64,000 nucleotides of DNA from Gnetum montanum (taxonomy: Eukaryota; Plantae; Gnetophyta), in the NCBI GenBank assembly GCA_015680685.1, contig MNCI01002485.1, positions 1,126,914-1,190,913 on the forward strand, given 5' to 3'. The notes under the pieces were generated by a model. That model worked only from the letters and a program-made list of their open reading frames with translations, had not been told where the DNA came from and made no database searches. Within the stretch, counting starts at the first letter, position 1, and each line of letters begins with the position of its first letter. A program made the position numbers and the translations under genes. Of the stretch, positions 3,870-39,062 are shown one piece after another.

Positions 3870-6800
3870 CATCGACTTACTTAGGCTTTTGGAAAGGCTT
3901 GACTTGTATGTTGACCAACTACTTTTTGTTTGGGCTTTTAGGTTTGTAGATAAACATGGCACTAGAAGAAAAAGTTTTGTAAATGATATAAGGTCCTTCC
4001 CACAATGTTTGGAACTTAGTTTGTTGAAGTACATATGTGGGGTTCCAATAGAGAACCTTATCTCATGGTTGAAATTTGACTTTCCTAATTCTAAGGTCAT
4101 GGAGTTTTTTGTTGAATGCCTTATGGAACTCATTAGATGATAGGTCCATCAATTGATTTTCATCTAGCAAGTTGAGATTCATTAATCATTCTATTTGTAC
4201 TAGACTTAAGTTAAGGTTAAGGTCAAAGGTTGTTGAAAGTGTATGAAGATGAGATTGAATAGGAAATATGGATAATCTTTTATACACTAGTTGATAGGAG
4301 AATATCCTATAGGGACTTTCCATGTTGAGAGGTAGGCCAAAAGGGCATCATTGAGTTTTGTGCTCTAGTCTCACCTATATTTGCTAATAGTTCTCATTAG
4401 GATCTTTGTGATTTCCCTATTTCTAACACTAGCTTGATCATTAACTTGGGGGTAATAGCATGTTATTAGTTTATGTTCAACCCTCAAGTGTTGCATAAGT
4501 TTTTGAAAGGTAGTGCTTATAAAGTGGATTCCATTGTTAAAAATTAATGCAAATGGCACACCAAACCTATTACAACATTTTTTTGTACAAACTGAGTAGC
4601 AATAGAAGATGTACATTTGGTGACAACTATTGTTTCTACCCATTTTGTACAATAGTTAACAATGACTATGCTGTACACCTTTTCATTTGACATAGGTGTG
4701 ATGAGACCCATAAAATCAATGCCCTAGATGTTAAAGGATTTTGGTGGTTGGATTCATTTTTGAGGTTCCTCCATTTGAATAGTCATTCCATTATCTTATT
4801 GGTAGCATTCACAAGAGTAGACATATTGGTGAGCATCCCTAAAGATTATTGGCAAGTAGTACCCTACCATCAAGATATTAATGGCTATGCATCTTCCAAC
4901 ATAGTGCTCCTCATAAGGACCCTCATGAGCATCCTAGACATACCAATAAACCAAGCCATTGATGCACACCTTGTTGAGATGTCCGTTGATCTCCATGAAG
5001 TGTTTTACCTAGTGAAGAAAATATTACGTCTTTTAATGGTCCAATCCCTGTGGCATCTCTTGAGTGAGAAGATAGGTAAAAATGCCAACATACCATTTAG
5101 GCTCAGAGGAAAATTATTTAATTATTTCCCTAGAAAAGAGGAGTTCATTAGGAAATCAATTATATAGTGGATATTCATCCTCTTTGTTCTCCCATTGCAA
5201 TCCAGACAAGTGATCAAAGATCACATTCTCAGTTTCCTTTCAATCTACCATCATAAGATTGAATTCCTATAAGATCGTCAGTCATCATATGACATGAAGG
5301 CTCACCATTGTCTTGTTCATTAGGAAGTGAATTGCACTATGGTCCATGTGTACAAGCACCTTTTATCCAAGCACATAATGCCTAAAATTCTCTTGAGAAA
5401 ACACCACTATCATCAATTCTTTTTCTCTAATGGTGTAGTTCAGTTGTGCACCCATAATGCTTTAGCTTATGTAGTGGATATAGTATGGACATTTCTTATT
5501 ATCCAATTACATAAGTACAACTCCCAAGGCATAGTGTGAAGAATTTTTCATGACATAAAATGGTTTAGATAAGTTAGGTGCTTGTAGAATTGGAGTTTCT
5601 ACAAGTTTCTCCTTTCATTGTTGAAATGATTTTTCAAATTCCTTGGTCCAAACAAATAGAGCATCTTTCTTTGTTAGCTCAACCAATGGTTTTGTGATCT
5701 TAGAGAAATTATCTATGAATCATTGATGTAGCCAGTGTGTCCAAGGAATGATTGAACATATTTGATGGTTTCTCATTGGTGGGTAATTCTTTAGATGACC
5801 ATTATCTTTTTAGGGTCAACCTCAATTCTTGCTTGTGATATTCTATTTTCCAATATAATGCCTTCCTAGACCATCAGGTGACTCTTTTAGAAATTGAGTT
5901 ACAATTTAGTTTCAACACATCATTTTAGTACTTGCTCAAGGTGGTTTAGGGCCTACTCAAATGTAGCTCCATAGGTGGAGAATTCATCCATGAAGAAATC
6001 CATACCACTACCATTTTGCTGCTAAAAAATGCTTAAGACCAGGTGTTGGAAGGTGGTAGGAGCATTGCATAGACCAAAAGGCATCTTGCAATATACAAAG
6101 GTCCCCTAGGGACTTATGAATGTTGTTTTGGCCTAGTCCTCTAGCACAATCTAGATTTAGTTATAGTCATTATAACTATCCATAAAATTGCAAAAGCAAT
6201 ACCCATATATTATGTCTAACACCTAATAACCAAATGACAATGGAAAATGATCCTTAAATATTGTCAAATTCAGCAACCAAAAATTGATATAGACCTACCA
6301 CTTGCTAACTTTATTTGGCATAATCACAAGTGAACTAACATACTTACTATTCACAATGAGATAGATGAACCCTACCTTAAGGAGTTGTTCAGTTTCCTCC
6401 TTGATGATGTGCTTTAGTTTGGAATTCAATCATCTCTGGGGCTATCTCTTTGGCTTCATGGCTAGATCGATGTAGATATGATGCTGCCATATCCTATGAT
6501 CAATCCCTCTGAGTTCAAGATATGACCAAGAAAAGGCTATTGACCATTTTTTAACCACTTTTAATAGCATCTTTTTCTATTCTTGAGCAAGATTTGCATT
6601 GATTATTATCATATATCCATTTTTTAAGAATACATATTCCATGCCGATAGGTAGAGTTTTTAATTCAAAAGGCTCTTGCTTAAAATTTTAGAAATTTCCA
6701 ACCCTCGCCAATAGGTTTCATCATTTTCATTATTAAAGAGTTGGTGATGAACTTGCTCTAGTTCATCCATGTTTGTGACATACGTGCATGTTAGGCTTTT

Positions 6801-10959: not shown

Positions 10960-11087
10960 GATACTTGAAAAGAAGGACCTCATTTACAAGCTCCTTAAAC
11001 ATCTTCATTTTTGTTAGCAAGTAATTTTAGTAGAGGTAAGTCTTCATCTCATTCAAACTTTCTTTTAAGATTATAATCCATTGTAGT

Positions 11088-11592
11088 TGTAATGTCCCAA
11101 CCCTTGTTAAGGTTGAAAGCAATTGTAAATAATGTAATTAACCTTCTAATGAAGGGACACCTCATTATGAGGAGTTATGATTATTCATGTATCCTTTGGG
11201 AAAGGATTTGACCTATGCCATTTAAGGTTGGGGTTAGAAGTTGTGTTGAGCATAAAGTTGTGAAGCCTAAAGAGGTAAGTAATGGGGGCGAAGTGGGACA
11301 AAAAGGGATTGATCATCCCTTTGGCAGGATAGCCTAACTGTGGTGGTAGTGCTAGATTGCCTCTAAGGCTTAAGTGGCATAGGAAGACAACCCAAAAGGG
11401 CATTACAATGCTCTCTTCCATTAATATAATTTTTTCATTTTCTTTGCTTAATTTTATAGTACCAATTATTTATTTACAAATTAATCCATTATTTAAGTAT
11501 TTATAATATTTTCAATATTATATCCACTAAAATGGTGAATGTAATAAATTAAGCGTTCATATTTTTATGACATCTGAGAATGGGATGTCACA
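11088..11592 (+). repeat. 5' LTR of the chromovirus
   Basis: TGTAATGTCCC...GGGATGTCACA; direct repeat of 19978-20487. Confidence 0.95.
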
Positions 11593-11594
11593 TT

Positions 11595-11606
11595 TGGTAT
11601 CAAAGC
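11595..11606 (+). promoter_or_regulatory. Primer-binding site, initiator tRNA-Met type
   Basis: TGGTATCAAAGC 2 bp after the LTR (canonical TGGTATCAGAGC). Confidence 0.9.
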
Positions 11607-11823
11607 AAAACATGATTCAAGAACCAAAGTGGAAGAAAAACCTTATTTTATTATTATTTTTATCATAAAAAATAAGTACATTTAAGAAAAATAACAATAT
11701 GGAGGAAAATATTATTTTATTTTATTATCAAGAGGAGTGAGAAGAAGTACATCTAAGTAAGATATAGAAAAGGAAGAATAAGGGAAAGAAGTAGAATGGG
11801 AAAATAAAGAAAAAAAACTATAA

Positions 11824-13727
11824 TTATTTGTTATAACTAAATGATTCAAGAATATCTATAATTATTTTTAATTGGTATTCTCTTTCTTTAATAGTAGCAT
11901 CTACTTTGCTAAGCACTGCTTTACATCCAGCTAGTCTATCACATAATTATTTGATATATTTGGTTGCACATCTTGCTGCAGTTGTTGATTCTTCTCTTTT
12001 TTTTTTAAGTTGAGTCTTCAACATATCCATCTATATTGATTGATCATCCATGTCCCTTTTCCATTCCTTCTCCTTTTTCTATAGAAACAAGATTTAAATT
12101 ATGAGTTATTAACATATCAACAAACAAAAAAGAGAGAAGAGAGAAAAGTGAAAAAATAATATAATAATAATAATAATAAAATATATTACCTAAAATTGAT
12201 CATTATTAATTTAAAGAAAGCATGCATGAGCATTCAGATGGTGAGCATAACATGTTGCACTTTCCAACTCTTCTAAGAGTTGCTCCAGAGTTTTTATAGT
12301 ATTTGGAGCATCCTCAGGAATTGGATGCCAAGATGATGGAAGTATAGCCTATACTAAATCATAATATGCTTTTAAATTGCATGACCAAAACTCCCATAGA
12401 TGATAGACATATGCATGACTAGAATAGGGTTTATTGTTAGAGATTTTTTCATTAATATACTGAAGAAGCACAAGTTCTTCTTCAGTAGCTACCATTATCC
12501 TTCCCATGGAATAAGATGAATCAGAGATAGAGAAAAAATAAATTACTATAATATATTTAGAAATTATTGTTGGTGCTACCTTTGAAAGGGAACCTCTTCT
12601 AGGTATTGGTGGAAAATAAGGTATAAGTGGTGAGCTAGGTGGTGGTGGAATAGGAGTCTGTGTAGAAGTAGCACCTACATCAACTCTATCCATTTCTCGA
12701 ATAAAGTACCATCGCTCCATAGACCTTTGCAACAAAAAAAATTTTAATTAACATTATACAAAGAAAAGAAAAAAGTATTCAAATTGTTAAATAATTAATG
12801 CCTACCTTTGGTTACTTTCCCTTATCACATCTTGAACTTTGTCGAGTTGGTTGGGATTGTTGTTGAGCCTATTGTCGGGTTGGTTGTCTTATAACTATTG
12901 GACCACTAGAATTTTTCCTAGTACATTACCTCTACAAAAGAAACTTATCAGAAAAATAAAAAAATAAAAAATATATATATAAAACATTAAAATTAGTAAA
13001 TTATATTTAAATATATGCCTTGGGAGTAGAAACTGTGACTTGTTCTTGTGATTGAACCATACCAAAGGTCAAAGTACCTTGAATTTCTTCANAAAATGTT
13101 TTTTGAGATGATCATAACTTAGGATCATACACATGATCAAAGGTATACAACATAGAGTATAGGATTTTAAAGAATGTTATTGGGCAATAGTCATTTCGGT
13201 CATAGTTGGATTGTTGTCTATACCATAGAACCTTGATACTAATGAATAGACATAATTCAAAGTAAGCATCATTAATGAAATGTTTACGAACAAATTGATT
13301 TTTTGTGAATGATGGAATTAGTAACATAATTGGATAATTATGTCTTATAAAAAGATTTAAATTATGGAGAATAAGTTGAAGGAATCAATGGATATTCTCC
13401 TTGCTTAAAGCCTAAGACTACTTTAATATCAAAAGGATTGATCGTTATCAATCCAAAACCTAATTAAAAAAAAGTACTTTTCTTATTATCATACTGCTCA
13501 AACCACTCTGAGAGAATACCCTTGCAATAGGAAAGTTTAGAAATTGGAAAAAATAGTAAATTAGCCAACCTAGAAGGGGTAAGGAACTAAAAATCATCCT
13601 TTACAAGCAAGCTACGAACTCAATCAAAAGCAGTAAGGACATTATTTTGGCATAAAAAAATATTATTAGGTAATAAAGAGCCACTACCTAAAGGGGCTTG
13701 AGGTGAATCTTAACATTTGGAAGCCAT
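11824..13727 (-). pseudogene. Antisense spliced accessory gene in the chromovirus leader: PMD-like N-terminus, low-complexity middle, coiled-coil C-terminus
   Basis: Hand-assembled exons 13727-13019, 12931-12806, 12724-12190 and 12078-11824. Introns are AT-rich, 81-111 nt, GC/GT...AG and all phase 0. Stops are mostly explainable as C>T changes of CAA/CAG/CGA; two 1-nt frameshifts are needed. Confidence 0.75.
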
Positions 13728-14419
13728 GAATTCTTTATAATAGAAAATCTTAAAGCTTCTTTGTTGACAATCTTATGTTGCTATTAAGTTATGATGAGTA
13801 AATCAACCTACTTCTTATATTTATAATATAATCATAAAAATCTTAGTAAAATCAAAGAGAAAATATAACTTAAGATAATAAAATATTTAATAAAAGGTAA
13901 CATATACCTTTTTTTTAAGAAAAAGAAAAAGCTAACGTTTACTTTTTGTTTTAAAAGTTAACATTTATGTTTTTGGATTTTATAATTTTTAGGTTTACTA
14001 AAGTGGAGTTATCACAAAGTACTCTCCGAGACAATTCCAATGGTATCAATTTCATCAAAATCTAACTTATGGTTTGGAAGATAAAGTCAATTTTGGTTTA
14101 CATGTAGTTTAAAAATTTAAAATTAAAAAATAATAATATAAAAATGATTTTTTTAAAAAAAATTTTAAAAATAAAATTTTAAATAAGGGATCTGAAGCTC
14201 AAACTTGAGCCCCAATTGCTAATTTAAAAATTATATATATATATAAATTTTTTTGGCCGACAGCTAGTTATAGCAAGGCCATGGCCAACTATAGTCAACT
14301 GTAGTAAGGGGGTGGCCAGCAGCTACAAAAGGGTTGTGACTATAAGTTTGGTTCCTAGGGCTAGCCCCAAACTGGGGCAAGTAAGAAAAACTAGCCCTGC
14401 CATCATAGCTATTTTTTTC

Positions 14420-14680
14420 CACCATTGATGTTTTCCATCATTGTCACTGCTATTCCATCATTGTCACTGCTATTTCCCCTGCTGTTGTCACTATTTCTTT
14501 TCCATTATCACTACACTACCTTCTCTTCATTGCCCATCACTACCTCTCACACAGTTCATCACTACCTCCCAAACCACCCATTACTGCCTCCTACACTATC
14601 CATCACTACCTCTTCTGCTATCCATCACTACCTCCTACACACCCATTATTACCTTCTTTGTTAGCCATCATCACCTTTTG
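14420..14680 (+). repeat. Degenerate CCATCACTAC/CATTGTCACTGC simple-repeat array
   Basis: Repeated CATCACTACC and CCATCATTGTCACTGCTATT units; this array explains ORFs 14425-14664 and 14441-14716. Confidence 0.75.
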
Positions 14681-14899
14681 GCCACCACGTGGACCTTGAA
14701 ATGGGTTGTTCATTAATTGATGAAAAAATAATTTTTTTTTTGAAAATTAGCAAAAAATTTTAAATTCCCATCAACTAATAAAAATTTTTCGAAAACAATT
14801 TTTGCACCTGTTAGTGTTAGTTTAAATTAAATACACGCTCAATTATTTACAAAAACTCAAATTGGCATTATGGAATTAATAGAAATAAAAATTTTGTCA

Positions 14900-14951
14900 T
14901 TAAGTGTGCATGTCCTGGAGTAGAACTGGGATGGGTGACCTCTTAGGAAGT
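14900..14951 (+). promoter_or_regulatory. 5S rRNA-derived segment (Pol III internal control region: end of box A, IE, box C)
   Basis: TTAAGTGTGCATGTCCTGGAGTAGAACTGGGATGGGTGACCTCTTAGGAAGT aligns without gaps at 42/52 positions to the plant 5S sequence as I recall it; GGATGGGTGACC is intact. It is not a full 5S gene. Confidence 0.85.
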
Positions 14952-15270
14952 GTCAAAAAATCTAAAAATTGAGAAAACTTAAAATGACTATAAATTTTAA
15001 ATTCAGAGTCCATTTTCAACCAAACAAAAACTAGTTCCAATAGATTTAAACTTCCAAAACTTAATAGAATGGTTATATTTAGCTTTTGGATTACAAAAAA
15101 TTAGCTTTTAATTCATTAATTTAGGTCCCAAAAATAATTAGGATTCTACACTCACTGAGAAATCCATAACAGTTTCAACTTCTTCCAAAACTAACTAAAT
15201 GATTTCGAATCTCATGAAAGGGCCATTGAGGCTAAGGATTCTTAACATACTTGATTTCTTCAACTTACTG

Positions 15271-18200
15271 ATGTCTAAAACATGAAGAACAAATTGGAGA
15301 GAAATGGAAGCCTGAGTCAATGATCGAATGAATACTCTTGAAGATCAAATTAATGAAATCAGGGATGTTCAAGAACTTCAACACTCAAACCAAATGTTTG
15401 GGATAGAGATGCAAAACATGTCTAAAGAAATTAAGAAATTGTCCCAAAATTCATAGGAGAAATGGTCTAAAGTACAAGGAAGATGGATTCCTTTGTAGAC
15501 TCCATCAAGCAATGAATCGACCATCTTAGTCAACCTTCGAGTCCTACCCATGGTCTACCTAGTGATCAACATTAAGATCAACCTTCCACTAGGAATCCAC
15601 AATAAACACAACTTCCACTTGTTAATGGATAGGATACTAAAATCCACCTTGTAGACAATAGAATGAATATTGAGGGTGAAGGATATGGGAAGTGGCTTAA
15701 TCCATTTAGAGAATTATTGACATAAGTTCATGCTAAGAAAGTAAAGTTAGATCATTACGATGGAGCCCTTGGATCTAGCACTAAGGCAAAGGATTGACTT
15801 GATACAATGACAAGTTACTTTGATATGTTGAATTTATCAAGCTATAAACATCTAGAAGTTATCTCCTTGTATTTAAGAAGACTTGCAACAACATGGTGGA
15901 ATGGGCTAAGATCTCAAGGTTTGATTACACATTGTCTTAATTTTTTTCAAGATTTTGAATATAAATTTGTTCTCGATTTTTTTCTCAAAGAGTGTAAAAC
16001 AAGATTTGATTCCTTAAGGTTGGGAAAACAATTTGTAGATGATTACTACAAAGAATTTTGTGATCTTTCTCAGTATGTAGGTCACCAGGATGAGGGAGGA
16101 TTAACTTCAAAATTCATGGGAGGACTACATGCTCAATTACATCCCCAAACATGAGACCATAATCCATAAAATGTTGATGAAGCATATAGAATTACTAAGG
16201 ATTATGAGGAATTGAATCAGATATGAGTGATCCTTCAACAAGAAACTTTTCAAGAAACCACTTTTCCTCAAGTAATGGTAGAGGAGACACTAATAAAAGA
16301 AGCTCAACTAGGATCTAGATGTTTCTTTTGTGGTGAGGATCATTTCAAACTAGATTGCCCAAAATTTTGAGCAAAAATATAAAGGACCAACCATATTAGA
16401 AATTATAAATCAAACCCAAACATGAACAAAGGAAAAATTCCAGCCACTGTCACAGCTGTCAAGAAGATATCCGCATTAACTAAATCAAGTTTGTGAAAAA
16501 TTTTAGTTTGCTTTACTAATTTTTGAAGGTTCAATTGAAGGTAAAAAAATTAAATTTTTGATTGATAGTGGTGGTAGTCATAACTTTATTTATCCAAATT
16601 TAATTAATTTATTGAAATTAAATATACCTTCCTAGAAAATTATTAAGATAGAACGAGCAGATGGAACAACTATGAGCAAGCATATCAAGTATGGAGAAAT
16701 TAACTTTACTTTACAAAACATGCCTTTTGTTGATGATTTTTTTGAATTTGAACTAGGTGACATTAATGAAATTTTAGGAATGTCTTTCCTGAAAAAATTT
16801 GATGTTACTGCCCTCTTTGAAACTCATATTTTAAAAGTTCCAAAAACTCATGGAGTCAAGGTTCTAAAAGGGGTAGGAACAACAAAGAAAATTCATACAA
16901 TAACTATTAAGCAAGCTAAAAGATTTTTCAAAAATGGTGCTATAGTGTTGGTTGTTAAAGTAACCCAACCTCATAAATTTTTATGTGTTAAGATCCCAAA
17001 TGAACTTAAGGAATATAAAGATTCAGCATTTGGTGAAACTATAGAATTACCTCCAAAACAAATTGTTGAACATATCCTTGATATTTTTCCTAGTGCACAA
17101 CTTGTCTCAAAATCTCTTTAATGATTTTCTATGTTGAAATTAAGAGAATTAAAAGTATAATTAGACCAATTATTGGAAGAATGAAAAATTAGACCTAGCA
17201 TATCACCTTGGTGTGCACCAATTTTATTCGTTAAAAAGAAAGATAGTACACTAAGATTATGCATCAATTATAGAGCATTGAATAAAGTAACAATTAAAAA
17301 TACTTATCCATTTCCTAGAATTGATGATTTATTTTATCAACTTATGGGTGCATGTTATTTCTCAAACATTGATTTAAAATCAAATTATCACTAAATAAGG
17401 ATTAAGGAGAAAGATACTGAGAAAACTACTTTTAGAACCAGATATGGATTATATGAATTTGTTGTGATGTCGTTTGGATTAATTAATGCACCTGCAACAT
17501 TTATGACATTAATGAATAATATTTTTCATGAATATCTTGTTAAATTTGTTATAGTATTTATGGATGATATACTTGTTTATTCTAAATCAAGAGAAGTGCA
17601 TATCAAAAATTTGAAAACTAAAATGGAAATTCTGGAAGAACACCAAATAAAAGCTAAATTGAGTAAATGTGAACTCTTTAAGGAAGAATTTTTATACTTA
17701 GGACATATAGTTTTCAAGAAAATATTGCAAGTAGATACTGCAAAAATTAGTGTGATCCAAGATTGGCCTGAATTAAAAGATGTTATAGCAGTTCAAAGTT
17801 TCTTAGGGTTAGCTAATTTTTATTGATTTTTCATTAAATATTATTCTGCGTCGGTAGCCCCATTAACTAACCGTTTGTAGGAGAAATGTGAGTTCAAATT
17901 TGATAAAAAATGTAGGGAATCTTTTCTCAGATTAAAGATGGTACTTACAATAGCACCTATTTTGAGAATTCTGGATGAAGATATACTATTTGAAGTATCC
18001 ATGGATGCCTGTGGAATAGGAATTAGTGTAGTTCTTTCATAGGATGATAAAATGGTATGTTATGAATCTCGTAAATTACGAAAAGCTAAGGTAAATTACT
18101 TAACCCATGATTTAGAATTACTAATAATTATTCATGCTTTGAAAGTTTGCAGACATTATCTTTGTGGAAAGAAGTTTGTACTAAAAATAGATCATAAAAG

Positions 18201-19795
18201 TATAGAATATTTGCAAAGACAACCTATTTTAAATACTCCTCAAAGGTGATGGATAGAATTATTTGTAGAATATGATTTTGAAATCAAATATATAATTAGC
18301 AAAAAAAAAATGTGGTAGCTAATGCCCTTAGTTGAATGTCGAATTTAAAGATAGGTGTAGTAATGACCCCTATGGAAGAATAAATTAAAAAACAAATAAC
18401 AGAAGATCCTTTAAAAATATTTTAACCAATATTTCCTATGAGCCTCAATATCAACTTACTTCTAATGGTTTACTGATGAAAGGACAAAGAGTATGCATAC
18501 CAGAAGGAAATTGAAGACAAAGGTTGTTGTGTGAAGAACATGAAGTACCATACATAGGATACCTATGTTATATTAATACCTATATGATAATATGAAAATC
18601 TTATTTTTGGCTTGGAATGAAGAATGATGTGTCTGCATAAAGTAAAAATTGTTCAACATGTTAAAGAATAAAGGCTAAATAGAGGGAACCTAGTGGATTA
18701 TTGCAACCTTTGAAAGTTCCAACCTATAAATGGAAAGATATCACTATGGATTTCATTCTGGGATTGCTAGTAATTGAAAAAGGAAATGAATCTATTTTCA
18801 TAGTAGTTGATCATCTATCAAAGATGGTACATTTTATAGCTTTGAAATCTACAAATGTAGCAAAAGAAATAGCCTAAAAATTCGTATGAGAAATATTTCA
18901 ATTACATGGTTGTCCAAATACTATCACTCTAGAGAGAGATCCCAAGTTCATATTTGAATTCTAGAAAATTTTCTTCAGAGAGCTTGGAACCCAATTAAAA
19001 TTTAGCATAGCATATCACCCTAAGACTAATGGACAAGCTAAATTTGTGAGTAGAATATTAGAAGATATCCTACAAAGCTACATTGGGAGTAGACCAAAAA
19101 TGTGGGAGAATTATTTACATCTAACAGAATTTTCCTATAATAACAATTATTAAGGTTCCATACATCAAACACCATTTGAGGTACTATATGGACGTAGTTT
19201 TCATACACCATTAACTTGGGTAGATCCAACCTTAAGAGCAGAATGAAAGGAAGAAGAAATGAAAATAATGGAAAACATTGTCACAAGGGTTAAAAAAAAT
19301 TTGCAAGGTGCCCAAGATAAATATAAAGGATATGCAAATCAACATCAACTTAAAAAAGAATTCCAAGTAGGTGATCAAGTATTTTTGAGAGTAAAACTTA
19401 CTAGAAGTTCTCTTAAATTAGCAAAATATACTAAATTAGCACCTAGATTTTGTGGACCTTTTGAAATCTCTAAAAGAATTGGAAAAGTAGAATATTAATT
19501 GAATCTTCCAAAAACCTTAAAAATTCATCCATTTTTTCATGTGATTTTGCTAAAGAAATTTCATGAAAATAATATTCCATATGTATTGGATTGGAATAAT
19601 TTGCCATTCTGAGCCAACACTGGCTTTGAAGTAAAACCCATTGTTATTAAAGACCAATGAACCAAGAAATTATGAAATAAAAATATTAGTGAAGTACTTG
19701 TTCAATGGTCAAATTGTGATCAACAGACTTGGGAAAATAGGGAGTTTAGTTTAAATACTTACCTCCAACTTTTTGATCATCATGATATTGAATGA
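15271..19795 (+). pseudogene. Chromovirus gag-pol with C-terminal chromodomain
   Basis: Gag in ORF 15807-16154; zinc knuckle CFFCGEDHFKLDC at ~16320; PR LIDSGGSHNFI at ~16558; RT VFMDDILVYS; RH at ~17990-18330; INT ITMDFILGL at ~18740; LAPRFCGPF; chromodomain EVLVQWSNCDQQTWE at ~19690. Confidence 0.93.
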
Positions 19796-19977
19796 AAGGT
19801 TGAATTTATTATGGATGTAATAAATTATGTTTATAATTTTTGATATTTTATTTGTATATATGATAATGAGGAGAATAAGGGAACTGAAGTTGAGTAGCAT
19901 AATAATGAAGTAGTCGTTGAGTAGCTGGATATTGAGGAAGCACTTGAGGACAAGCTAGCTAGTTTAGGGGGGTATAT

Positions 19978-20487
19978 TGTAATGTCCCATCCCTTGTTAA
20001 GGTTGGAAACAATTGTAAACAATGTAATTAACCTTCTAATAAAAGGGAACCTTGTTATGAGAAGTTATGACTATTCATGTATCCCTTGGGAAAGGGTTTG
20101 ACCTATGCCATTTAAGGCTAGGGTTAGAGGTCATGCCGAGCATGAAGTTGTGGAGCTTGGAGAGGTAAGTAATAAAATCTAGGTGAAGCAAGAAAAAAAA
20201 GGACTAATCACCCCTTTGGTAGGATAGCCTAACTATGGTGGTAATGCTCGATTGCCTCTAAGGCTTTAGTGGCATAAAAAGATAGCCCAAAAGAGCATTA
20301 CAATACTATCTTCCATTAATATAGTTTTTTCATTTTCTTTGCTCAATTCTTTAGTACCAATTATTTATTTTCCAATTAATCCATTATTTAAATATTTATA
20401 ATATTTTTGATATATTTTCCACTAAAATGATGAATGTAATAACTTAACCATTCGTATTTTTACGACATCCGAGAATGGGATGTCATA
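19978..20487 (+). repeat. 3' LTR of the chromovirus
   Basis: Direct repeat of 11088-11592, preceded by the PPT and followed by the TSD. Confidence 0.95.
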
Positions 20488-20641
20488 GTAGTTATACCCT
20501 AAACCTTCCCTTGCTAAAATGTCTACCATTAGACATATATATTAAAAGATAGAAATATACTCATAGAAATCTACATCATAAGTTATATTTTTAACTGAGT
20601 TGTGTGTAGATGTGACATAGACATCTACTAGTGATGATAGG

Positions 20642-23373
20642 TGATGAGTAGTGAGGTACCCCTATGCTCAACTATACAAATACGAGTGTTTCACACATGA
20701 TTCGGATGAATTCCAAGGACTAAGTGCTTATGCACCNNNNNNNNNNNNNNNNNNNNNNNNNNNNNNNNNNNNNNNNNNNNNNNNNNNNNNNNNNNNNNNN
20801 NNNNNNNNNNNNNNNNNNNNNNNNNNNNNNNNNNNNNNNNNNNNNNNNNNNNNNNNNNNNNNNNNNNNNNNNNNNNNNNNNNNNNNNNNNNNNNNNNNNN
20901 NNNNNNNNNNNNNNNNNNNNNNNNNNNNNNNNNNNNNNNNNNNNNNNNNNNNNNNNNNNNNNNNNNNNNNNNNNNNNNNNNNNNNNNNNNNNNNNNNNNN
21001 NNNNNNNNNNNNNNNNNNNNNNNNNNNNNNNNNNNNNNNNNNNNNNNNNNNNNNNNNNNNNNNNNNNNNNNNNNNNNNNNNNNNNNNNNNNNNNNNNNNN
21101 NNNNNNNNNNNNNNNNNNNNNNNNNNNNNNNNNNNNNNNNNNCTAGAATAACCACTCTAATAATTAGAATAACTGCTACAGTAAACGATAGAGTAACCAC
21201 TCTAATAATTAGAGTAACTACTCTCATCATACCCCCATGACCGAATGAAAACTCATCCTTGAGTATAGAAGAAAAGAAACAAGTTCTTTACAAAATATTG
21301 GGATGGTATGGGATTATTGACTAACTAACAACTGATGGTGAAATGGGATGACAGACTCAATGTGCCTTATGAATGGATCAATAAGCATATTACAACATTA
21401 GTGTTCATGACCATTGTGGTGAACACTGGTACATAAATGACATCCAAGCCTTTATTTGGAAGCTTGTAGAGAAAGAGAGAGAAAGAAAATGGTGCATTTT
21501 GCCACCAATTCCGAGATTGTGCCTTTTGTTATTTATTCATAGCAATGCCACCAAACTTGCTCCTTTCATAACTGCTCTAGTTTTAGTCCATCCTAAGTGC
21601 TTCCTCCAAGCCTGGTCCATTTTTTGTATGATCACCATCTACACACACAACACAATCACAAATGAGCAAGGATAGATAAACCACAATGCAGTTGATACCT
21701 TGCCTCAATATGAAGTGCATTGGTTGAGTTGTTGTTATAGTAGAAATTGGTTTAGAGATTTATCACAGGTGACTACCCAAGGTGTAGGGGTTAGGAAAAT
21801 ACTCATTTTCGCTTAAGACATGTGGGGCATCCTAGGACCACTTACCCTTCAAGGACTTATGATGTCTCTCCTATTGCAAGTACCTATGACATTGTGCCTT
21901 TGTGGGATGGTATTCTCTTGAGTCATGATCTTTCACAATGTATTCTACATGTAAGTGCAGCATGCCAATTCATGTGAGAGCATGAAGGAGTATGCTCAGG
22001 ACTTAATGATTAGGAGATAACACTATGTTACTTTCTAAGTCTCGCCAATGCAGTTTTTCCTCTTGATGGAGATAAAGGTAAAGTTTGGTATATACTCATC
22101 AAGATGAATATATACCACTCAAAATTCTTGAGGGACTAGTGGATCAATGTCATGTGTATTACATCGTTGACTATTTCCTATTTTAGACCTAGGCAATGAA
22201 ATGCTTTCATATGAAGAAGCATACATACTTGTCTACTTAGTGTGAAATGTATTCTTGCTTATTATTTTCTCAATCAACCCTAATGGTTCCTTCCAATGAT
22301 GTGAATGAATTCCTATGTTCTAATTAGTGCACAAATAACTAAGTCATCAGCAACGGTGCCAATGATGAGCAGCGAGGTACCCCTACGCTCAACCATATGA
22401 ATACGAGTGTTTCACACACGATCTGATCGAATTCCAAGGACTAAGTGCTTATGTGACCTTGTGGAACAAGGATAGGTCGGGTGATCATTGTCTTCTCAAA
22501 CTTACCTATATGGCATGATTGTATAATTAAGTAAGCTTGAGGCATATGATTTTTGTAGCTTTTATGTTTTTATGTCCTACGCTAGTAGGGAAGGAGAGAG
22601 GTAACTAAGTGAATAATTTAACCTAACTAATCATTAACTAAGTTCTAACTAATCTTAACACTAGCATCCATTCCCACTTTACATACATATCTTGAACTAG
22701 TGCAACACTGCTAGGATTACCAAATGCTAATCGTTAGTGGGTTACCAAGCGTTACACACATGCTTGAAATGGTCATGCTTCTGTAATTTAACAATTTTCT
22801 TAATTGATCAAAATGAATTTTTGTGCTAATAATAAAAATGTAAAGTGCATAAAATAAAATAAAATAAAATAAAATAAATGAATAAGAAATTGAAATAAAA
22901 GAAATGCATAAGAAAAAAAATCTCAAGTACTACAAGGATGAATCAAAGAGCTTGTCATTATTGCCATACACAAGGTGTGCTTAGGTACACAATGCTCGAA
23001 TAAAGATCCATCCAAACTTAGAACTCCTACTGTAGGCACTTGGAAAATAATCTAACTTTCAAATAGACTACAAGAGTTTTGCTACTTGACTACTAAAATA
23101 CTTTCTTCCCAATTGTGTGTTTGGGCACTATGTTTATAGGCTTGGGAGCAACTACTCTAATAATTAGATTAACCACTCTAATAATTAGAATAACTTCTAA
23201 AGTAACCGCTAGAGTAATCACTCTAATAATTAGAATAACTAGTAGAGTAACTACTAGAGTAACCACTCTAATAATTAGAGTAACTACTAAAGTAACTGCT
23301 AGAGTAATCACTCTAATAATTAGAATAACTGCTAGAGTAACCACTCTAATAATTAGAGTAACTTCTTTCATCA
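20642..23373 (-). mobile_element. Non-autonomous, non-coding Athila-family element B (LARD/TRIM-like)
   Basis: LTRs 20642-21229 (gapped) and 22363-23373; minus-strand PBS TGGCACCGTTGC at ~22350-22361; PPT TGGGGGTA at 21230-21237; TSD ATAGG/ATAGT; 1133-bp internal region without recognisable domains. Confidence 0.88.
23150..23361. repeat. Palindromic tandem array in the LTR U3: 21-bp unit with core ACTCTAATAATTAGAGT interleaved with 12-bp CTACTAGAGTAA
   Basis: Six CTCTAATAATTAGA cores; the same array occurs at 21143-21220 in the sister LTR. Confidence 0.9.
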
Positions 23374-23536
23374 ATAGTCATCTATCTTTTCATAAAAAGT
23401 CCCTTGATAGCTATAATTACATAAAGCTAATCCTTCATTTTTCCCTTATTCTTCCACATGCAAGTGTAGATGACTGAGGGTAGATGACCACGACTTCTTC
23501 AACAATAGTGGTTTATGGATTTCTCTTCCAAATTGA

Positions 23537-26533: not shown

Positions 26534-28056
26534 GATTCACTTTTTCCTCTTCCTCATGTGAGAAGGATAATTCTTCTAGTAGAATAGGAGTCTAAATTTA
26601 AGAGGTCCCTATACCATTTCCTAAGCATTGTCAAAGCTATGGATCCACCTCAATGAAGGTTGTTCAATTGTGTCTTGCTATTTGAATGTGATGGCACCCA
26701 ATGGTAGTGACATTACAACAATTACAATGTCTAATATAGTCACATGAGTAGTAAAAGAAGGGCATCTTCCTAAAAGAAAACTGATCCTAGTAGTTCCATG
26801 ATGGAGATTCAAATTGATGAGAAAGCTCATTATCTAGATTTATGTAATTCTAGTTTAGAAGTTAATATTATTTCATTGCAATAGTACCTTAATTAGGGGC
26901 TTCCCTATCCAAATATTACTAACATTAGATTGAAGCTTATAGACCTATTGTATACATACCCCATGGAAGAGGTCAATGACATTATGACCACTTCAATGGA
27001 ATGATCATATCTTAATAATTTCTTAGTAATTAAACTATAAAATAATATGGAAGATAGGTTTCCTATAATCATGAAAGAAGGCTGGATGAGCACCATTGAT
27101 GCCAAGATAATTTTCCAAGATGTTCATGTTGATATTGGTAGGAAACAGTAGCTAGAAAGACATAGTATAAGTAGATCTTATATGATTCTTTCCAATCTTA
27201 TGACAAGCATGGTTGTAATTTCTATGTCACTAGGCATTTCTATGTCATTAGATATGTGAATTACCTTGAAGAATTTCTAGTCCATGAAGCCAAACATCAA
27301 TTCTTTGAAAGATCATTCCATATTTTTCCTTATCGAATGTCAAATCATTTGATTAAAAAGTTGAGAATATAATGAATGTAGCTACAATGGTGTAATATGA
27401 TCTTGAATTCTAGGGCATCCTTAATTTGTTCCAAGATATTTCTACATCACCACTCAAAATCAAGACACTTTAAGAAATCTTGGAGTACTTATTCATTATA
27501 GATGATTTCTTTATCATTATTAATTTCTTTTTAATGATCTCCCAAAATTTTGAATTGAAAAGGTAATTGCAAAGTGGAATAAATCATTTACCTAATCCCA
27601 TAATGAACTCATGGAAATTGATACTTTGATATATCAATACAACATATACATAGACTAAAGTGTAAAACCTTGGTAAATACTATAGTGTTGATTCAATCCA
27701 AATATGTAGGTATGGTAAAAAGTGAAATTGTCCATATCCTATGGATTGGTTTCATTTTTACTATCTTTGACAATGAGTGGGTTAGTTTGAGTATAGTTGT
27801 ACCAAAGAAGGGAAATGAAAGAAGAGTCTATATCAACTATAGATTGCTAAATGTTGATGCCTTTAAGGACCATTTCTCACTTACCTTTGTAGACTAGTTA
27901 TTGGATAATATCCTTGGTTAGGACAATTAAAAATTTCTTAATGGGTACTTTAGTAACAATCGAATTAACATTACATTAGAGAATTAAGCAAAAAATACCC
28001 TCATTTATCCATGAGGGATCCTTGTCTTCAAGAGCATGCCCTTTGGGTTATGTAAT

Positions 28057-30958
28057 TGTTGGCACATTTTGGCCATATTATGGAGTAGAAATATAAAAAG
28101 TATGATAAGTTTTTTTTTAAAGAAAGGGGATGTGAAGATATACACTTGAAGACTATTATTAATCATACCTATTTCAACATTAGATAACTATTCTATTTAG
28201 TAATGCTATTAATTCATATTCTCCTTGCCTAAGGTTTAATTCACTATCCAAGATAAACCCATTACAAAACCATTATATTTGGGTGGACACATTTAATTCA
28301 AAAATATATATTTCAGTTGAGGATGGATAGTTTGAATATTAGAAATTTTATAATTCCAAGTCCAACTAAAGAAAAAACATCAGAGTAGTACAACAAGAAT
28401 ACCATTATAGTTCCAATTTTTTTTAAAAAAATATAATTATATCAAGCAAAGGTTCACTCATTATCATTAATACTCACGAAATCACCAATACCATGTTTAG
28501 TGTGGCCTTCATGACATTGATGGGTTGAATCATTGTGGAGACATGACAAGAATAAGCATTAAATCCCTCACAACCCTATTCCTTGGTTCTCAATTATTTG
28601 TTTTACAATGATTTCCTCATTTGTTGCAAGTGTACCTCTAGTGCTTAAAAACATTTCCTACCAAGAAAGAAATATAAATACAGAAATGAAAGTGAATGCA
28701 ACCTTTGCATTTTGTTTAAGGTTTGACAATGCTAGGGAATTATTTTTTGAGCATTTCTCAAGACTCTATAGTTGCTCTATTTCAGTTTTATTTCTCAAAG
28801 ATAAAATATGCAATAGTAGGGTTAACTTGGATGGACACAAGAGCTTTTGCCTATTGTACTATTTTAAAAAAAATAAATGAAACAAATATGAATAATGGAT
28901 ATCCCTGGAAGACTATCTAATGGACCTACAACTAAATAAGAAAGAACAAGAATCATTTCAAATGGTAATGTTGCCAATTGTCACTTCACCAAAAAGTAAA
29001 ATTACAAGAAGATATGGGAGCTCCATTGCCATATTAGCTATCGATTCTTATTCTTGTTTCATTACTATTATTATGTCCATCATTGTTCCTATAGAGGCCT
29101 TCACCGTCTCCATCTCAATGTAATCTGGTTTTGGAATGTCATTGGAAATGGGCTTTGATTATGATTGAATTGTAATGACATCAGCTATGGTAGTTTTAGG
29201 AAGAAAGGATGACATATGGCAAGAGGTATCAAACCTTACATGTGCCAGGGTTTTGATAACTTAATTCCATGTTGTTGCAAGGTAAATTTTTTGAAGCTGC
29301 CATTGGTGATTCTTGCATCATTTTTATTGATGTTTCTAGCAATGACCTTGATAAAGCTTATCAACAAGACATCGAAATTATGAGTTGTTGTAAACTATGA
29401 GTTCATTGCCTAAACTAATGATGGTTATTGTAATAGAATACACACATACCTAAACACTTGGTCTAAGCATATGCTATCTCCTTTAATTAGCCAATCATAT
29501 GTTTACTTGGTTCCACTTAAATAAAAACTCAATTTAAATGGAGAAGAAGAATTTACATGATATTTGTACAACTTGCTATATAAAGAAGATATTTGGCTAT
29601 GACTCCTTTTATTTTTATGGAATTTGTAACTTCCTATGATGATATTTGTTACCAAGGAAGAACTTGGAAACTATATCTTAAATTTTTCATAATTCCCATG
29701 GAAGTTATAACTTCTACAATGGTTATAAATTTATATGCCTAAGATATTTGTAAGATCCATAACTTCACATGATTATTGTAACTACCTTAAGGTCGCTACA
29801 AAAGAACCTTCAAAGGTAGACTAAAAGGGGGAGGAAGATTGGAAAAAAACATTTAAATAATTCTTGTAAGATGGCTTATTGAAGACATCAATTCGGCTAC
29901 TTTGTTTTAATCTTGTGAGTTCATTTCTTTCCATTTTGTTTCAGTTTCTTAGCTAATGGTTTAGATAGTATCATTCTTTGCATTTAATTTTGGAATTTAT
30001 TCTAGGTTGCTTTTATAGCTCTATTTTTGTGCAATATTAGACTTCTATTAAGATTTTCCATAGAAGAGCTCATGTTTTTGGAAGCCTCAAGAGCAATTTA
30101 ATAGTAGTGCCTTAATGAAATTGCCTATTTTGACCATAGAGGATCTAGGAAAGGCTTTGGTATTTTGATGAGACTAAAATAGGTTCTTTATTTTTAAAGT
30201 TTATTACCTTGGTATTCAACCAAAAAAATTATCAATTTTTTTAAAAGCTCTATGGAATGTAATATTTAACATCTATCAACTAGCCAAAATAGAGACTTGC
30301 ACTTTGTGATTTATGGAGAAATATATGGTATTATAATAAGATTGTTTTTATGAAATTGATTATTAAGCTCTAAAAGTTTGGACAATTTGTAGTTATTGAA
30401 TTGGAAATAGCTTTATTGCAAAGTGTTTTCTCATGTCAATTTATCTTACTTAATATTTGAGATTTCACACAAATCTACTTCTTTTCTTTCTCTTTCTATG
30501 TCCATTGAATCTTGCTTTATTTATAGTTTTCATGTGGAACTTTTTCTCTAGGGGAAATTTGGAGTAGATTGAAAGAATTATGCTTAAATGTTTTTGTAAT
30601 ATTTTATTTTTTACAAGTAGGTATTATAAGGATCATATAGACTATGTGATTAAACAAAATTGAAATCTCCAACAACTCATAGTGTTTGACAAAGTTGGTC
30701 AAATCTCCTTTATGATAGTTGATTACAATTTTATACATATCCCAACCATTTCAACATTTTCAATAGTAGAAATATATTCATGTCTAGTACATTTTATAAC
30801 TATTGAGTTTATTTGGAGGTATTTAGGCTTTGGTGCTGCTAGAGACTAGCAAACATCTAAACCCTATTTGAAGAACACTTTCAATCCTATGACTTCCCCA
30901 GGTCGCAAGACTGTGGAGACCACCATGTTGACATTTGCATCCCAAGTGGTCACCAATA
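28057..30958 (+). repeat. 5' LTR of D
   Basis: TGTTGGCACATTTTGGCC...CACCAATA, colinear with 39063-42642. Confidence 0.9.
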
Positions 30959-31339
30959 GTTCTTTTAGTGCTAGAAGGAGGGTGTAAAATTTATCGTCTA
31001 AGTTCATAAGCCTAATAGTCCTAGCACACCAATACTTCTTTATTGCTAGAAGGGTTCAAGAAATTAGATACTATTTTTAGTTGATGACCAAGAAGATTGA
31101 TAGTTTTGGAAGACTTCAAAGCTTCCAAGGAATTTTTTAATTATAATACTAAATATTCATCTAAAGAAGAATAAAAGACATATTCTAAAATTGGAACAAG
31201 TAGTGGAGTAAAGACTAGAAAGATAAGAAGATCGCCCCTTCTTTTTCTTTTATTATTCCATAAGAGAATACCAAAGAAGTATAAGAGTTCAATGATAAAA
31301 ACGAATTCTAGTAGGATGGAAAATCCCTAGCAAAAAGTT

Positions 31340-34300
31340 ACACTTTTAGGTTTTCAAGATTACAATGATATTCCTAAAGTAGTTTCCAAATATTTGCCTA
31401 AAAATTTTATTCCTGGAAAAGCATACTTAGCTAAAGAGTATATTCACATATTTGAGTTAGCTTTGGCTCATGAAAATGTTCAACATCAAGATCAAGCTTG
31501 TAGATTGTTTCTAGAAAATTTAAAGGATATGGATCAAATTTGCTATTTGAACTTACCAAGTAATAGTCTCACAAGTTGAGATGATATGAAGAGTCTTTTC
31601 TTTGCCCAATTAGGTAATCAATTAGATCAACAACAATTGTACTATGGGATAATGCAAGCTAAGAAAGGAGTTAAAGAGTTAGTTAGAGATTTCAATATTA
31701 AGTTTCAAAAAATTTGTAAACTCTTTAAAAGAAACTATAGATCATTAGAAAAAATACTTAGAGATACTTATCTTAAGGCACTGAATCCCAATATTTCAAG
31801 TTCGTTATGAAGAACTCCAAACTTGATAACACTCAATGACTACTTTAGTGAAGCTATATAGTTAGAAAAATAGTTAAACTTGAATCATGAAGAGATTATC
31901 ACAACTCAAAAAAGAGAAGAAAAAAATGATGATTCATGTGCAATATTTTGCTGAACTTAAAACATTACTAGGTCCATATCATATTAAGATAGAGCAAGAG
32001 TTAGAAAGCAAACAATCTAAAAAAGGTTAATTAATGAGAGACTTCTTCAAAAAAGTAGTGAAGCTAGAAAAAGATTTGGAAAAGGTTAAAATCAAGGAAG
32101 ACAAGAAAGATAGAAAACATAAACATAAAGATACTAAGTTAGTAGAAGATGAGGATGAAAGTGATCTTATCATGTCCAAATTCCTTGATATTAAATTAGA
32201 TAATGAGTTATCTAGTGTTCATTATGCAAGTAAATCTTCTAACAATGGATGTAGTGATACTTCTTCTCTATTAGGTTTTGAAGTGAATATATCATTAGAT
32301 GATGAATATAATAATAATGAGGAAAATGGGTATAATATTCAATCAAAAGAAATTTTAACTACTTCTAAACCTCCAAATGTCATTTCTAATCCATATACTA
32401 AAAGAATGGTTTTGAACCAAGTAGAAGAAAGAAAAATAAAAATAAAGAAGATGAAGTAGGGCAAAGTACTCAAAATCAAACTTTCAACAAGTGTATAAAG
32501 AAACCATGCTTTTATGGAGATGGAAAATATGATTTAATTAAAGATCTTAAACATGTTAGAGCCAAAATTAGTATATATCAATTGTTACATATTGATGATC
32601 ATAAAAGAAAAGCTTTAGAGTTTATTAAAGGTAAAAAGAGAGTTGGAGAATCAGAATTAAGCTATGTGTTAAACAATGTTGTTTGTGGAGACTTCAATGC
32701 CAAACATGAAAGTAGTGTTTTTCAATTTTTAAAATATGGAGGTGTAAAGGAATCTTTGGAAGATGAACTTGATTTGAAGAAGATATTTCCGTCAATTCAA
32801 CATGAAATTCCATTAGCTACTGCATATTCTGCTAACTTTGAATCTTCACTAGATAAATCAACTTCTAGAATTTAGGAATGGATGATGTTGATGGATAATA
32901 ATCATCAAGAACCATAATTTACCAATCACTCTACAATGATTAATGAGGATGGATCTACAAACTTTATCATTGAGACCCTATATTATATTTGGTATGATGT
33001 ATGATTCTTTCAAGTTATCAAGTTACTAGAGTTGATTTATAAAGAAGAAGTTGAGAAGAATCAAGATCAAGCCTAGCCATCCTATACAAGACCATCTGAT
33101 CATATACCACTTATGGTAGAATTGCAATTACTTCCATCAATTCATAAAGGTTGATTAAGAACAGGAAGTATTTCATCCTTACTTTTATTTATGATCTTAT
33201 TATTTTATTCATTAGTTTAAATTATATTTCAATTAGATTAATAGAATAATTAAACGTAATGAAAACTTGGGAATAAAAGAATTTGCCTTGCCTTCACTTG
33301 GAAAACCAAATTCAAGTTATACTTTATGTGATCTTGGTAAGGACTAGTGATTGGTGATTGGTAGATATTTAAGTTACTTCTCATTATCTTAAAAAATGAG
33401 GTAAATAATAATAAAGTAATATTTAATTTTCCATATATTTTTCTCACATATATTTTGTTTGAAGAATAAGCAAGAAACAAATTCAAGTTCAAAGAAGAAA
33501 TCAAATTGTTAAAGCATAGGGTCATAACAAGAAGCATTAGAATTGGAAAAATATAGTAAATGTGCACTTGTTTGAGGATAAATGAAACCTAAGGGACATA
33601 GATTATCACATACCCATTCCCAAATGATGGTGCAACCTGATGAAGATTATGCCTTTTCATAACAAGTATTATTGTTATCTTAATAAAGACCCAAAAGGGA
33701 AGTTGTAATTAAGACCTAAAAGAGTATATTGTAATAATGGATGTGTCTCTTAAGGTAATGTTTGGGTGTTTGAACTAAGGCATTTATACCCAAGGTCATG
33801 CCAGCATGGTGTGACAAATCTGATACAACCAAGTCATGAGAGCTAGGTGAAGCAAGACAAGAAGTGGACTAGCCATCCCTTCTGGCCGAGTTATAAGCCT
33901 AACCGTGGTGGCAATGTTAGATTGACTTTGAGGGATAGATGCCAAAGGAAGAAAATCCCAAGGAACACTCTTAGAGCACAATTTGGATATGCTATTCCAT
34001 ATCAATAAAGCATTCTTTTCTTTCTCTTCATGCATTTTCCTATTATTTTCTTTATACATAATATTAAATGTTACATATATTTCGCATTTGGTATATTTCC
34101 TTCATATGTATAATGTCTAATATATTGTATATTATAAAATTTTCCATGACATATGAGGATGGGATGTCATACACATGGTCTTTTGTTGAGTATAAGTTGG
34201 AGTAAAAATTTCTCAGGTTATATGTAAACAAATTATTCACACATGTGGCTACATTGGAAAAGGGAACCAAATCAAATTTACATATATAATGAACCGTTGA

Positions 34301-37300: not shown

Positions 37301-37770
37301 ATGGATGGAAATCTAGGAGATTGGATTGATTATTTGCAATCTGCATTATGGACTAATCATATTAGATTTAATAAGGCTATTGAAATTCAGCTTATAAATT
37401 ACTCTATTGATTTCTTGCAAGATTATGAACAAAATTATAAGTTTGGCATTAGATTTTGTGAAAAAATATAGTGAGAAAACTGAGAAAGATAGAAGTTTCA
37501 TACACTTTTGTCAACAAAGGAAAAGCCAAAATGGATAAAGATATAGATAATTTATTAAAGAACATTTTCCATGTCAAAAGGTGGCTTGATAGAAAGGCTC
37601 TATAAGGAACTTTTAAGGTTGGTGATCTCATATTATTATGGAATATGAAAAAGTCAAATAAGTCTTAGGAAAAAATTATCTAGAGATACATAGATATTAT
37701 CAACACTAGATGGGATAGAGTTGTAGTTTCCATATAATTTTTTGCATATAAAACATTATTTTGGACAACT
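31340..37770 (+). pseudogene. gag-pol of D with an additional archaeal-type RNase H upstream of RT
   Basis: Gag ORFs 31394-31810; SHMWLHWKREPNQI at ~34240; aRH FDGS...TNNKVEYEAL...GDSRLV...HIRREDNYIVDDLA at 34435-34800; RT MPFGLSNIGATFQR and VYLEDI at ~35640-35745; INT ORF 36995-37471. Confidence 0.88.
33604..34171 (+). mobile_element. Solo LTR E1 (family related to the chromovirus LTR)
   Basis: Homologous to 40476-41112; shares AGCCTAAC.GTGGTGG.AATG.TAGATTG and the GGATGTCA(C/T)A end with 11088-11592. TSD is weak (TAGAT/CACAT). Confidence 0.85.
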
Positions 37771-37789
37771 ACCCACAATTTGAATCTAT

Positions 37790-37980
37790 ATGTATAAATA
37801 AATATATATATGTATATAATATAGTAATATATATGTATATGTGTAGGTAACTATAATAATATTTAGTATACATAGTAGTAAATAATGAAATTTTAGTAAT
37901 AATATATATATATAATAAGTAACATACATATAGTCTTATATAATATTTAACCATACCATATATATCCTATACGTATGTTT
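37790..37980. repeat. Degenerate (AT)n low-complexity tract
   Basis: TATATA-rich stretch after the integrase of D. Confidence 0.7.
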
Positions 37981-39062
37981 AGATAAGTCTATTTAGTATT
38001 ATTAAAACATGTATAGGTTAGAGTACTAGTTTAAATAATATTTAATTGAAGTGTTAATTAAATTATTCAATTTATATTATCTCAAGTAATCATTACTTGT
38101 CATGTGTGTAAGTGGGAGTGATGGTTAGATAATTACTTGGTGGTGAATTAATTTCAATAACCAAGAAGTGGAATTCAAATTGGCCTACTGTATAATGAGG
38201 GAAAGATAATTAATTTTGGCAAAGTGGCAAAGTTGGTTAGTGAAATTTGTGGGAATTTAAAACTTTATTTAAACTATAAAAAGAGATGTGGATTGCTTAG
38301 GATTGCATCATTTCTCAATTCAAGATTTATGGGGGAAATGTAAGTGAAGTGTTTAAGTGTAAGGAAGACGATGGTTCTTGGAGAAAGAGTAATAAGAAGG
38401 TCAGTTATCTCACATGTCATGGGATGTTATCCAAAACATGTGTTGAGGGCCTATTGTAAGGAAACTACCCATGAACCATCAAGTGAAAGCCCTTTCCTAT
38501 TATGGCTTTCAGATGAGTTTAGATTTCTCACCAGTGGACTTTCTATACATTTCAATGTTTAGGATAGCCTCCATGAATGTAATACTCAAGCTAAAGATCA
38601 AAAGGAATCTAGTAGAGATGATTGCTAGGGAGAAGCTTTTATGTCTTAAGACATAGAAGCATCTAATTGGGAAGAACCCTAGAAATTAGCAACAAAAGAG
38701 ATGGATGCAAAGGAGACAAAAACAATTGTGGAAGATAAAGGTGAAGACCAAGATGAGACTTCATCTAGGCAAAAAGAGGAAAGAAAAGCACTCATCACAA
38801 CTACGATAACATATGAAAAAACTCTCAATATGAGAATCCCTGAGAGATTTATTCTAACTATTTTCTTTCCATCCACAAACTAGTTTATATGATATTGAGT
38901 TTGTATAGTTTCCTAAGTTTTATTAGGAATGAGGTTTTTATTTCATCAAACCTTAAGTTTGATGAAATTTTTCCTCAAATAATATTTTTATTTCTATGTA
39001 AAAAGAAAAGTTTATAATAAATTCTATGTATTTCAACTAAAGTGTAAAAATGGGAAATGAAA

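Follow-up and report, generated by a model that had tools for sequence, protein, structure and literature searches.

A 5S rRNA gene relic with a well-preserved internal promoter in the leader of a Ty3/gypsy retrotransposon of Gnetum montanum

In a 64-kb stretch of Gnetum montanum DNA (the window), we identified a gag-pol element of the Ty3 type, now broken, that carries most of a 5S rRNA gene in its long 5' leader. The 5' half of this gene is eroded and the promoter half kept, and only the internal promoter is well preserved. An earlier note on this DNA had reported a 52-bp match to 5S rRNA; judged from the sequence comparisons below, that observation is real and larger than first claimed, and a function for the piece is plausible.

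Results

The element that carries the 5S piece

The plant DNA of the window is rich in A and T, shows heavy deamination (CpG observed/expected 0.15 and CHG 0.29 across the 64 kb) and is composed of LTR elements nested in one another. The element studied here is a decayed Ty3/gypsy LTR retrotransposon on the plus strand at 11088..20487, flanked by an exact 5-bp target duplication (11083-11087 and 20488-20492). All the features of a Ty3/gypsy element are present in this interval: a 5' LTR (11088..11592, plus strand) without 5S similarity, a primer-binding site (PBS; 11595..11606, plus strand) that we take to be of the initiator-Met type, domains in the order gag-PR-RT-RH-INT, and a short G-rich polypurine tract (PPT) just before the 3' LTR (19978..20487, plus strand). 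Pfam searches identified gag, protease, RT, RNase H, an integrase zinc finger and SH3 in gypsy order and in three frames. The plus-strand gag region (15271..16400; Retrotrans_gag, E 2e-6) is broken, and the pol region (16450..19780, plus strand), which runs from protease through RT, RNase H, integrase and SH3 to a faint chromodomain, contains many stops. The copy has 12 stops in 618 PR-RT-RH codons and, when the integrase region is followed in a single frame, 14 in 447 codons there. Its LTRs are identical at 436 of 503 aligned sites (K2P 0.15), and 52 of the 67 differences between them are transitions.

The studied copy is an old dead element of autonomous layout. The earlier description of it as an autonomous chromovirus holds for the layout and not for the copy itself, which has many stops, domains in three frames and no intact gag-pol frame. 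On the chromovirus assignment, the Pfam Chromo match, located where expected after the integrase, is sub-threshold (E 0.082; 13.3 of 25.1 bits). We use Tekay-like as a label for this chromovirus layout on our own assumption. Database proteins, among them many pine or JGI entries, reach no more than about 55% identity to the RT-RNase H region. In a FastTree RT tree of the 112 of 120 proteins retained after an alignment-length filter, built without named lineage references, the element sat on a long branch, with 104 land-plant-type RTs as its sister group (support 0.94), and several of the conifer proteins carry PF00385.

Elsewhere in the window, a large LTR element at 28044-42614 has repeats of about 2.9 and 3.5 kb that are 79-86% alike and a distant gypsy-like pol; its repeats have patches of 71-73% in common with the 3' LTR of the studied element. 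Gypsy pol remnants also lie on the minus strand at 61326-63934 and 4428-6471, neither with a 5S-like piece within the window.

The match to the 5S internal control region

The 52-bp piece at 14900..14951 (plus strand) aligns without gaps to 5S nt 52-103, the internal control region with its A box, its intermediate element (IE) and its C box. Identity to real angiosperm-type 5S genes is 42 of 52, as the earlier note had claimed. Across the plant 5S references, identity was 40-42 of 52, apart from an N-rich contig with 37; for the divergent L047 5S gene, which we take to be of moss type, it was 39 of 52. These references are real plant genes from contaminant contigs, the host's own 5S not being among them. 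A motif scan of bacterial assemblies yielded 29 loci, and all 20 of those checked in Rfam were RF00001 above the gathering score. Plant-type 5S rDNA was thereby found in 29 bacterial assemblies (L020-L048), nearly all on short contigs, which are evidently plant contaminants.

Searched against the 64-kb window, blastn and nhmmer each recover the match with E 6e-9 and no other site. Its ungapped score of 54 compares with 23 for the next-best site in the window and with a maximum of 33 in 150 Markov-3 simulated windows; together these results rule out a chance match. The positions first given for the piece were also accurate: it lies 320 bp upstream of the gag ATG at 15271, 1173 bp from the antisense ATG at 13727 (said to be about 1 kb away), and, as the only match in the window, in neither LTR.

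The piece forms a 48% GC island between flanks of 21-28% GC, and 44 of its 52 positions agree with one of the references. Four further positions are C>T or G>A changes, all at CG/CHG sites, and the four non-deamination changes (5S nt 62, 65, 66 and 76) fall at the A-box edge or between boxes. The C-box core at 14928-14937 matches the 5S gene of L048 at 9 of 10 bases, the differing base being common to L047. The base at 5S nt 80 is one that L047 has; from the sequence alone, this base and the conifer-rich RT matches suggest that the host is likely a non-angiosperm land plant.

Significance against RF00001, a test set beforehand, was not obtained: a 181-nt scan gave 13.4 bits against a gathering score of 38 (E 2.6), and the 15-kb and 64-kb Rfam scans contained no RF00001 match. 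The score is likely sub-threshold because the RNA fold is lost, and since a covariance model would here be scoring a lost fold, we gave more weight to the direct comparison with 5S. We found no stable RNA fold of the piece (z +0.71), and the 3' end that would supply its pairing partner (nt 104-119) is unrelated to 5S (1 of 16 identical). These two results rule out a conserved RNA structure and indicate that a DNA motif was kept, not an RNA shape; the changed nt 76 is presumably a position in the loop E motif. The piece is accordingly not a full 5S rRNA gene, as it falls below the Rfam gathering score and has neither the fold nor a T-run terminator after nt 119.

An eroded 5' half and a step in conservation

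The flanks of the piece had been described as not 5S-like. This is correct for the 3' side and incorrect for the 5' side, where a decayed 5S 5' half (nt 1-51) continues in the same ungapped register at 14849..14899 (plus strand). There, 18 of 51 positions are identical to 5S and 17 are C>T or G>A changes, the remainder being 1 reverse transition and 15 transversions. In this comparison, a post hoc observation made in the single register set by the promoter match, the 35 of 51 positions that are identical or C>T/G>A have a permutation p of 5.5e-4. A fraction of 2.7e-4 of 36,576 AT-matched 51-mers from the window did equally well, none of 80 shifted registers reached the score, and MAFFT aligned this half to 5S without gaps. 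Purines and pyrimidines agree at 36 of 51 positions, where 25.6 would be expected (p 0.003). Taken by itself, identity is modest (18/51, permutation p 0.03), and the signal is weaker against L047 (p 0.01). The piece has collinear 5S homology beyond chance, the mark of a 5S-derived pseudogene. We infer an old capture of most of a 5S gene, which would long predate the insertion of this copy.

The two halves of this gene have been retained to very different degrees. C/G positions are kept at 5 of 29 sites in the 5' half and at 22 of 28 in the promoter half (Fisher 4e-6). None of 600 permutations equalled the best conservation split, which lies between 5S nt 51 and 56, by box numbering what we take to be the start of the A box. 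Methylation context differs between the halves, with 22 of the 28 promoter-half C/G in CHH context. The step nonetheless persists when CG/CHG sites are left out (16/34 versus 40/46, p 2e-4) and when the comparison is limited to sites that do not vary among three references (13/27 versus 35/39, p 5e-4); on A/T sites alone it is not significant (13/22 versus 20/24, p 0.10). Among the CHH-context C/G of the promoter half, 20 of 22 are kept and none is deaminated, which fits protection.

The LTR pair provides an estimate of decay since insertion, with a ceiling of 13.6% deamination per C/G per copy if all LTR transitions are counted as deaminations. By this measure, 3 of 28 sites are deaminated in the promoter half against 3.8 expected, and the 17 of 29 in the 5' half are far above expectation (p 2e-8), with the caveat that LTR rates may understate decay at CG/CHG sites. 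This pattern suggests that the promoter half was near-intact at insertion and that the 5' half was already eroded. The simplest reading is that erosion of the 5' half took place in earlier rounds, with the promoter half maintained up to the insertion of this copy. Because the promoter half is spared relative to the 5' half of the same gene, the earlier prediction of a retained Pol III factor site receives indirect support, stronger than the note itself could offer.

The antisense gene and the long leader

A broken antisense accessory gene, with four coding-like blocks and three intron-like gaps, occupies the minus strand at 11822..13727. The blocks are 29-39% GC, and the gaps are about 78-112 nt long, 12-18% GC and 54-58% T, most with splice-like ends; stops and at least one frame change disrupt the gene. 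Pfam and two homolog searches assigned it to no family, nor did an atlas search with a single ORF (best 0.76), and a phmmer comparison with 340 ORFs from related loci returned nothing (best E 0.027). By eye, we take its first block to resemble plant-mobile-domain or DUF1985 motifs; a Pfam scan of 14 of the 150 non-gag-pol ORFs of related loci contained no such domain. Reverse transcription of the sense RNA would leave introns on this strand in place, and the gene could thus travel with the element. Neither the leader nor the antisense gene has detectable similarity in other elements of the 64-kb window. At 14420-14691 there are four copies of a pyrimidine-rich repeat of about 22 nt and a G-box-like hexamer (14686), and this region is probably the leader and promoter of the antisense gene.

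The 5S piece is situated in the AT-rich spacer between the antisense gene and gag, in a 3.7-kb leader. The PBS and RT are 5551 nt apart here, compared with 453-3192 nt in those related loci (19 of 80) that have an LTR end and a PBS, so the long leader is particular to this lineage. Given the many upstream ATGs, gag-pol likely needs an internal start or splicing. A TATA-like hexamer at 14989..14994 (plus strand), 38 bp downstream of the 5S piece and before gag, is a candidate internal Pol II promoter, of a type common by chance in AT-rich DNA.

Transcription signals around the 5S piece

Cassandra TRIMs of plants, reportedly described by Kalendar in 2008, are the obvious comparison for an LTR element with a 5S promoter. 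The genomic RNA of an LTR element must start in the 5' LTR. The 5S piece begins some 3.8 kb into the element, which places it about 3.3 kb downstream of the 5' LTR, and T runs occur at +44 and +147 from the 5S +1. This internal position and the T runs rule out a Pol III-made genomic RNA or gag mRNA, and exclude the Cassandra mechanism. Upstream of the 5S +1, at 14821..14838 (plus strand), there is weak evidence of external signals in the form of a TA-rich hexamer at -28..-23 and GC at -12/-11. These are plant 5S upstream element positions according to PMC8264772, and GC at -12/-11 occurs in 8 of 15 distinct real 5S upstream sequences against a local background of 2%. Position -1 is T, where the plant 5S external promoter has C, and the whole profile is not significant: a profile of 11 real upstream regions did not single out this site, as 27% of leader 35-mers score equally.

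Searches for the piece elsewhere

We searched for the piece in related elements identified by a profile scan of metagenome contigs, using the best 80 of 572 confirmed loci (RT identity 40-59%), 39 of which have at least 2250 nt upstream of RT. None of these best 80 loci contained a 5S-like piece (best nhmmer E 5.4 over 499,582 bases), and in a deamination-aware scan of them the best score was 34, compared with 44 for the window. A lineage-wide trait appears to be excluded on this evidence; the 80 relatives are other families by sequence, with no bearing on sister copies. A variant-specific motif had 0 matches in metagenome contigs, and a protein scan of viral contigs for relatives of the element returned nothing. 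Nineteen 15-mer matches in viral contigs were all chance (19-27 of 52 identical including the 15 fixed bases; 0 in Rfam).

Discussion

We consider it an evenly balanced proposition that the 5S piece is a lineage-maintained TFIIIA/TFIIIC site, known from one copy, whose action would be on the local chromatin lying between two promoters. The 5S internal control region is where TFIIIA binds and then brings in TFIIIC and TFIIIB. In the explanation we prefer, the element lineage would have kept the A box to C box as a binding site for TFIIIA/TFIIIC, by selection during replication, and the bound factors would hold a methylation-resistant patch between the antisense promoter and the presumed internal gag-pol start. 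We infer both factor binding and an effect on chromatin or on the flanking promoters from the sequence. That the bound site would keep the inter-promoter patch open or separate the promoters, with family-wide upkeep, has in our judgment as much in its favor as against it. We offer a broader version tentatively and with more doubt than belief: a full-length chromovirus family may have domesticated a whole 5S promoter as an internal Pol III-factor insulator and activator, with a leader split into an antisense gene and a sub-genomic gag-pol promoter. Such a family would be a coding counterpart of Cassandra that uses the promoter for chromatin control and not for making RNA, and possibly a model for the first entry of 5S promoters into LTR elements.

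The alternative to be taken most seriously, although we consider it unlikely, is that the piece is a passenger 5S pseudogene, whose boxes had been spared before pickup (for example by bound factors) and which sits in this copy or a small branch without use to the element. Biased A- and C-box conservation is reported for mouse 5S pseudogenes outside any retrotransposon (PMC3261910), 5S pseudogenes are abundant in some gymnosperms (PMC6526317), and a 2024 review offers the speculation that transposons gain no benefit from most of the rDNA modules they carry (PMC10946416). The absence of the piece from all of the best 80 of 572 relatives, which are distant, also agrees with a passenger. However, we found no convincing scar of an enclosing insertion, the flanking direct repeats being low-complexity A/T runs only; decay of the promoter half agrees with the post-insertion expectation; and the piece is located in the element's one intergenic spacer.

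It is improbable that the piece is instead the remnant of a Cassandra-like TRIM, or of another 5S-derived short element, that lay in the leader and lost its own LTR sequence. The piece does coincide with the Cassandra core region, its changes fall at inter-box positions that vary in Cassandra, and some Cassandras have more than 100 nt in common with 5S. Nevertheless, the match is single in the window and no second copy, PBS or PPT lies nearby, no TG..CA unit combines a good inverted repeat with an exact target duplication, and the flanks are as GC-poor as reported above (21-28%). Neither a plant 5S-derived SINE nor a gymnosperm Cassandra is known according to PMC10946416. Beyond analogy, the link to Cassandra proposed in the earlier note finds no support: the piece lies outside both LTRs, we found no convincing Cassandra-like LTR or target duplication around it, and its in-register 5' half argues for a 5S gene as the source rather than a Cassandra core.

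A functional role of the opposite sign, in which the promoter would tether the element to nucleolar or 5S chromatin and damp gag-pol or the antisense gene as a form of self-restraint, seems quite improbable. The sequence evidence for it is identical to that for the explanation we prefer, and in mouse, ectopic 5S rDNA led to more nucleolar association and a lower linked Pol II reporter (PMC3261910). On the other hand, the sparing of CHH C/G in the promoter half (20 of 22 kept) fits local protection better, and our literature search found no plant precedent. Finally, we give almost no credence to a bare 52-nt piece of 5S RNA acquired by a reverse-transcriptase template switch with a chance resemblance upstream, since the modest identity of the 5' half (p 0.03) and the sharp 3' end at nt 103 are outweighed by its purine/pyrimidine agreement (p 0.003) and by the direction of its mismatches (17 C>T/G>A versus 1 reverse).

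In what is retained, the piece resembles the promoter relics of Cassandra and Ajax, and it departs from them in position and coding capacity. Like Cassandra, it is an LTR-element 5S sequence of A box, IE and C box in which the boxes are kept and the inter-box positions varied; in Cassandra itself, the boxes are fixed and positions just before the IE and C box vary (Maiwald, bioRxiv 2023.07.14.548913). Unlike the Cassandra promoter, the piece is single, internal to a 9.4-kb gag-pol element with gag, PR, RT, RH and integrase domains, unable to start the genomic RNA, and attached to a decayed 5S 5' half. Relative to Cassandra and TRIMp3, the 5S boxes are present here, whereas a 5S region in both LTRs and the short non-coding form are absent. 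Ajax and Helenus (TRIMp3) likewise keep just the promoter portion of a small-RNA gene, without its RNA fold, but they are non-coding TRIMs that carry the piece in each of their two LTRs (PMC10886601). The same paper expects autonomous partners to use Pol II promoters and calls the autonomous partner of Cassandra unknown.

Mouse 5S pseudogenes offer another likeness, in that their boxes outlast the rest of the gene and a TFIIIC-bound chromatin or positioning element has been proposed. They are dispersed chromosomal copies in a mammal, not retrotransposon cargo between divergent genes, and in mouse, 5S sequence is associated with repression and H3K9me3 and not with opening (PMC3261910). An antisense accessory gene within the element is likewise found in Grande, RIRE2 and Retand, with its own promoter in Grande. 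Their antisense ORFs lie between pol and the 3' LTR (PMC7264820), whereas the antisense gene here is 5' of gag, has intron-like gaps and is preceded by a 5S promoter relic.

Every plant transposon that the 2024 review lists with a 5S promoter is a non-coding Cassandra TRIM that carries the promoter in its LTR (PMC10946416, Table 2), and no Cassandra is reported there from gymnosperms. Banana 5S units linked with copia remnants inside rDNA arrays represent the reverse arrangement (PMC7025596). Our search of open-licence papers found no gag-pol element with an internal 5S promoter, and the layout studied here is not described in the available parts of PMC5688495, PMC9289625, PMC3692318, PMC6526317 and PMC13570524. 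If present family-wide, the piece would be a second way of exploiting host TFIIIA/TFIIIC, in which a coding element uses them as a tool on chromatin, and it would provide a plant example in which a barrier role of Pol III factor sites can be tested. A one-off would be a clear example of box-biased decay in a plant 5S pseudogene, of modest interest.

Two further observations concern sequences around those analyzed here. A tandem repeat with 12/21/33-nt units occurs twice beside an assembly gap in the window, at 21143-21229 and 23158-23382. Among the metagenome loci, Athila ORF1, a copia RT and an LRR gene fragment lie beside chromovirus-like elements (L057:292-897, L066:2240-2824 and L058:578-1258).
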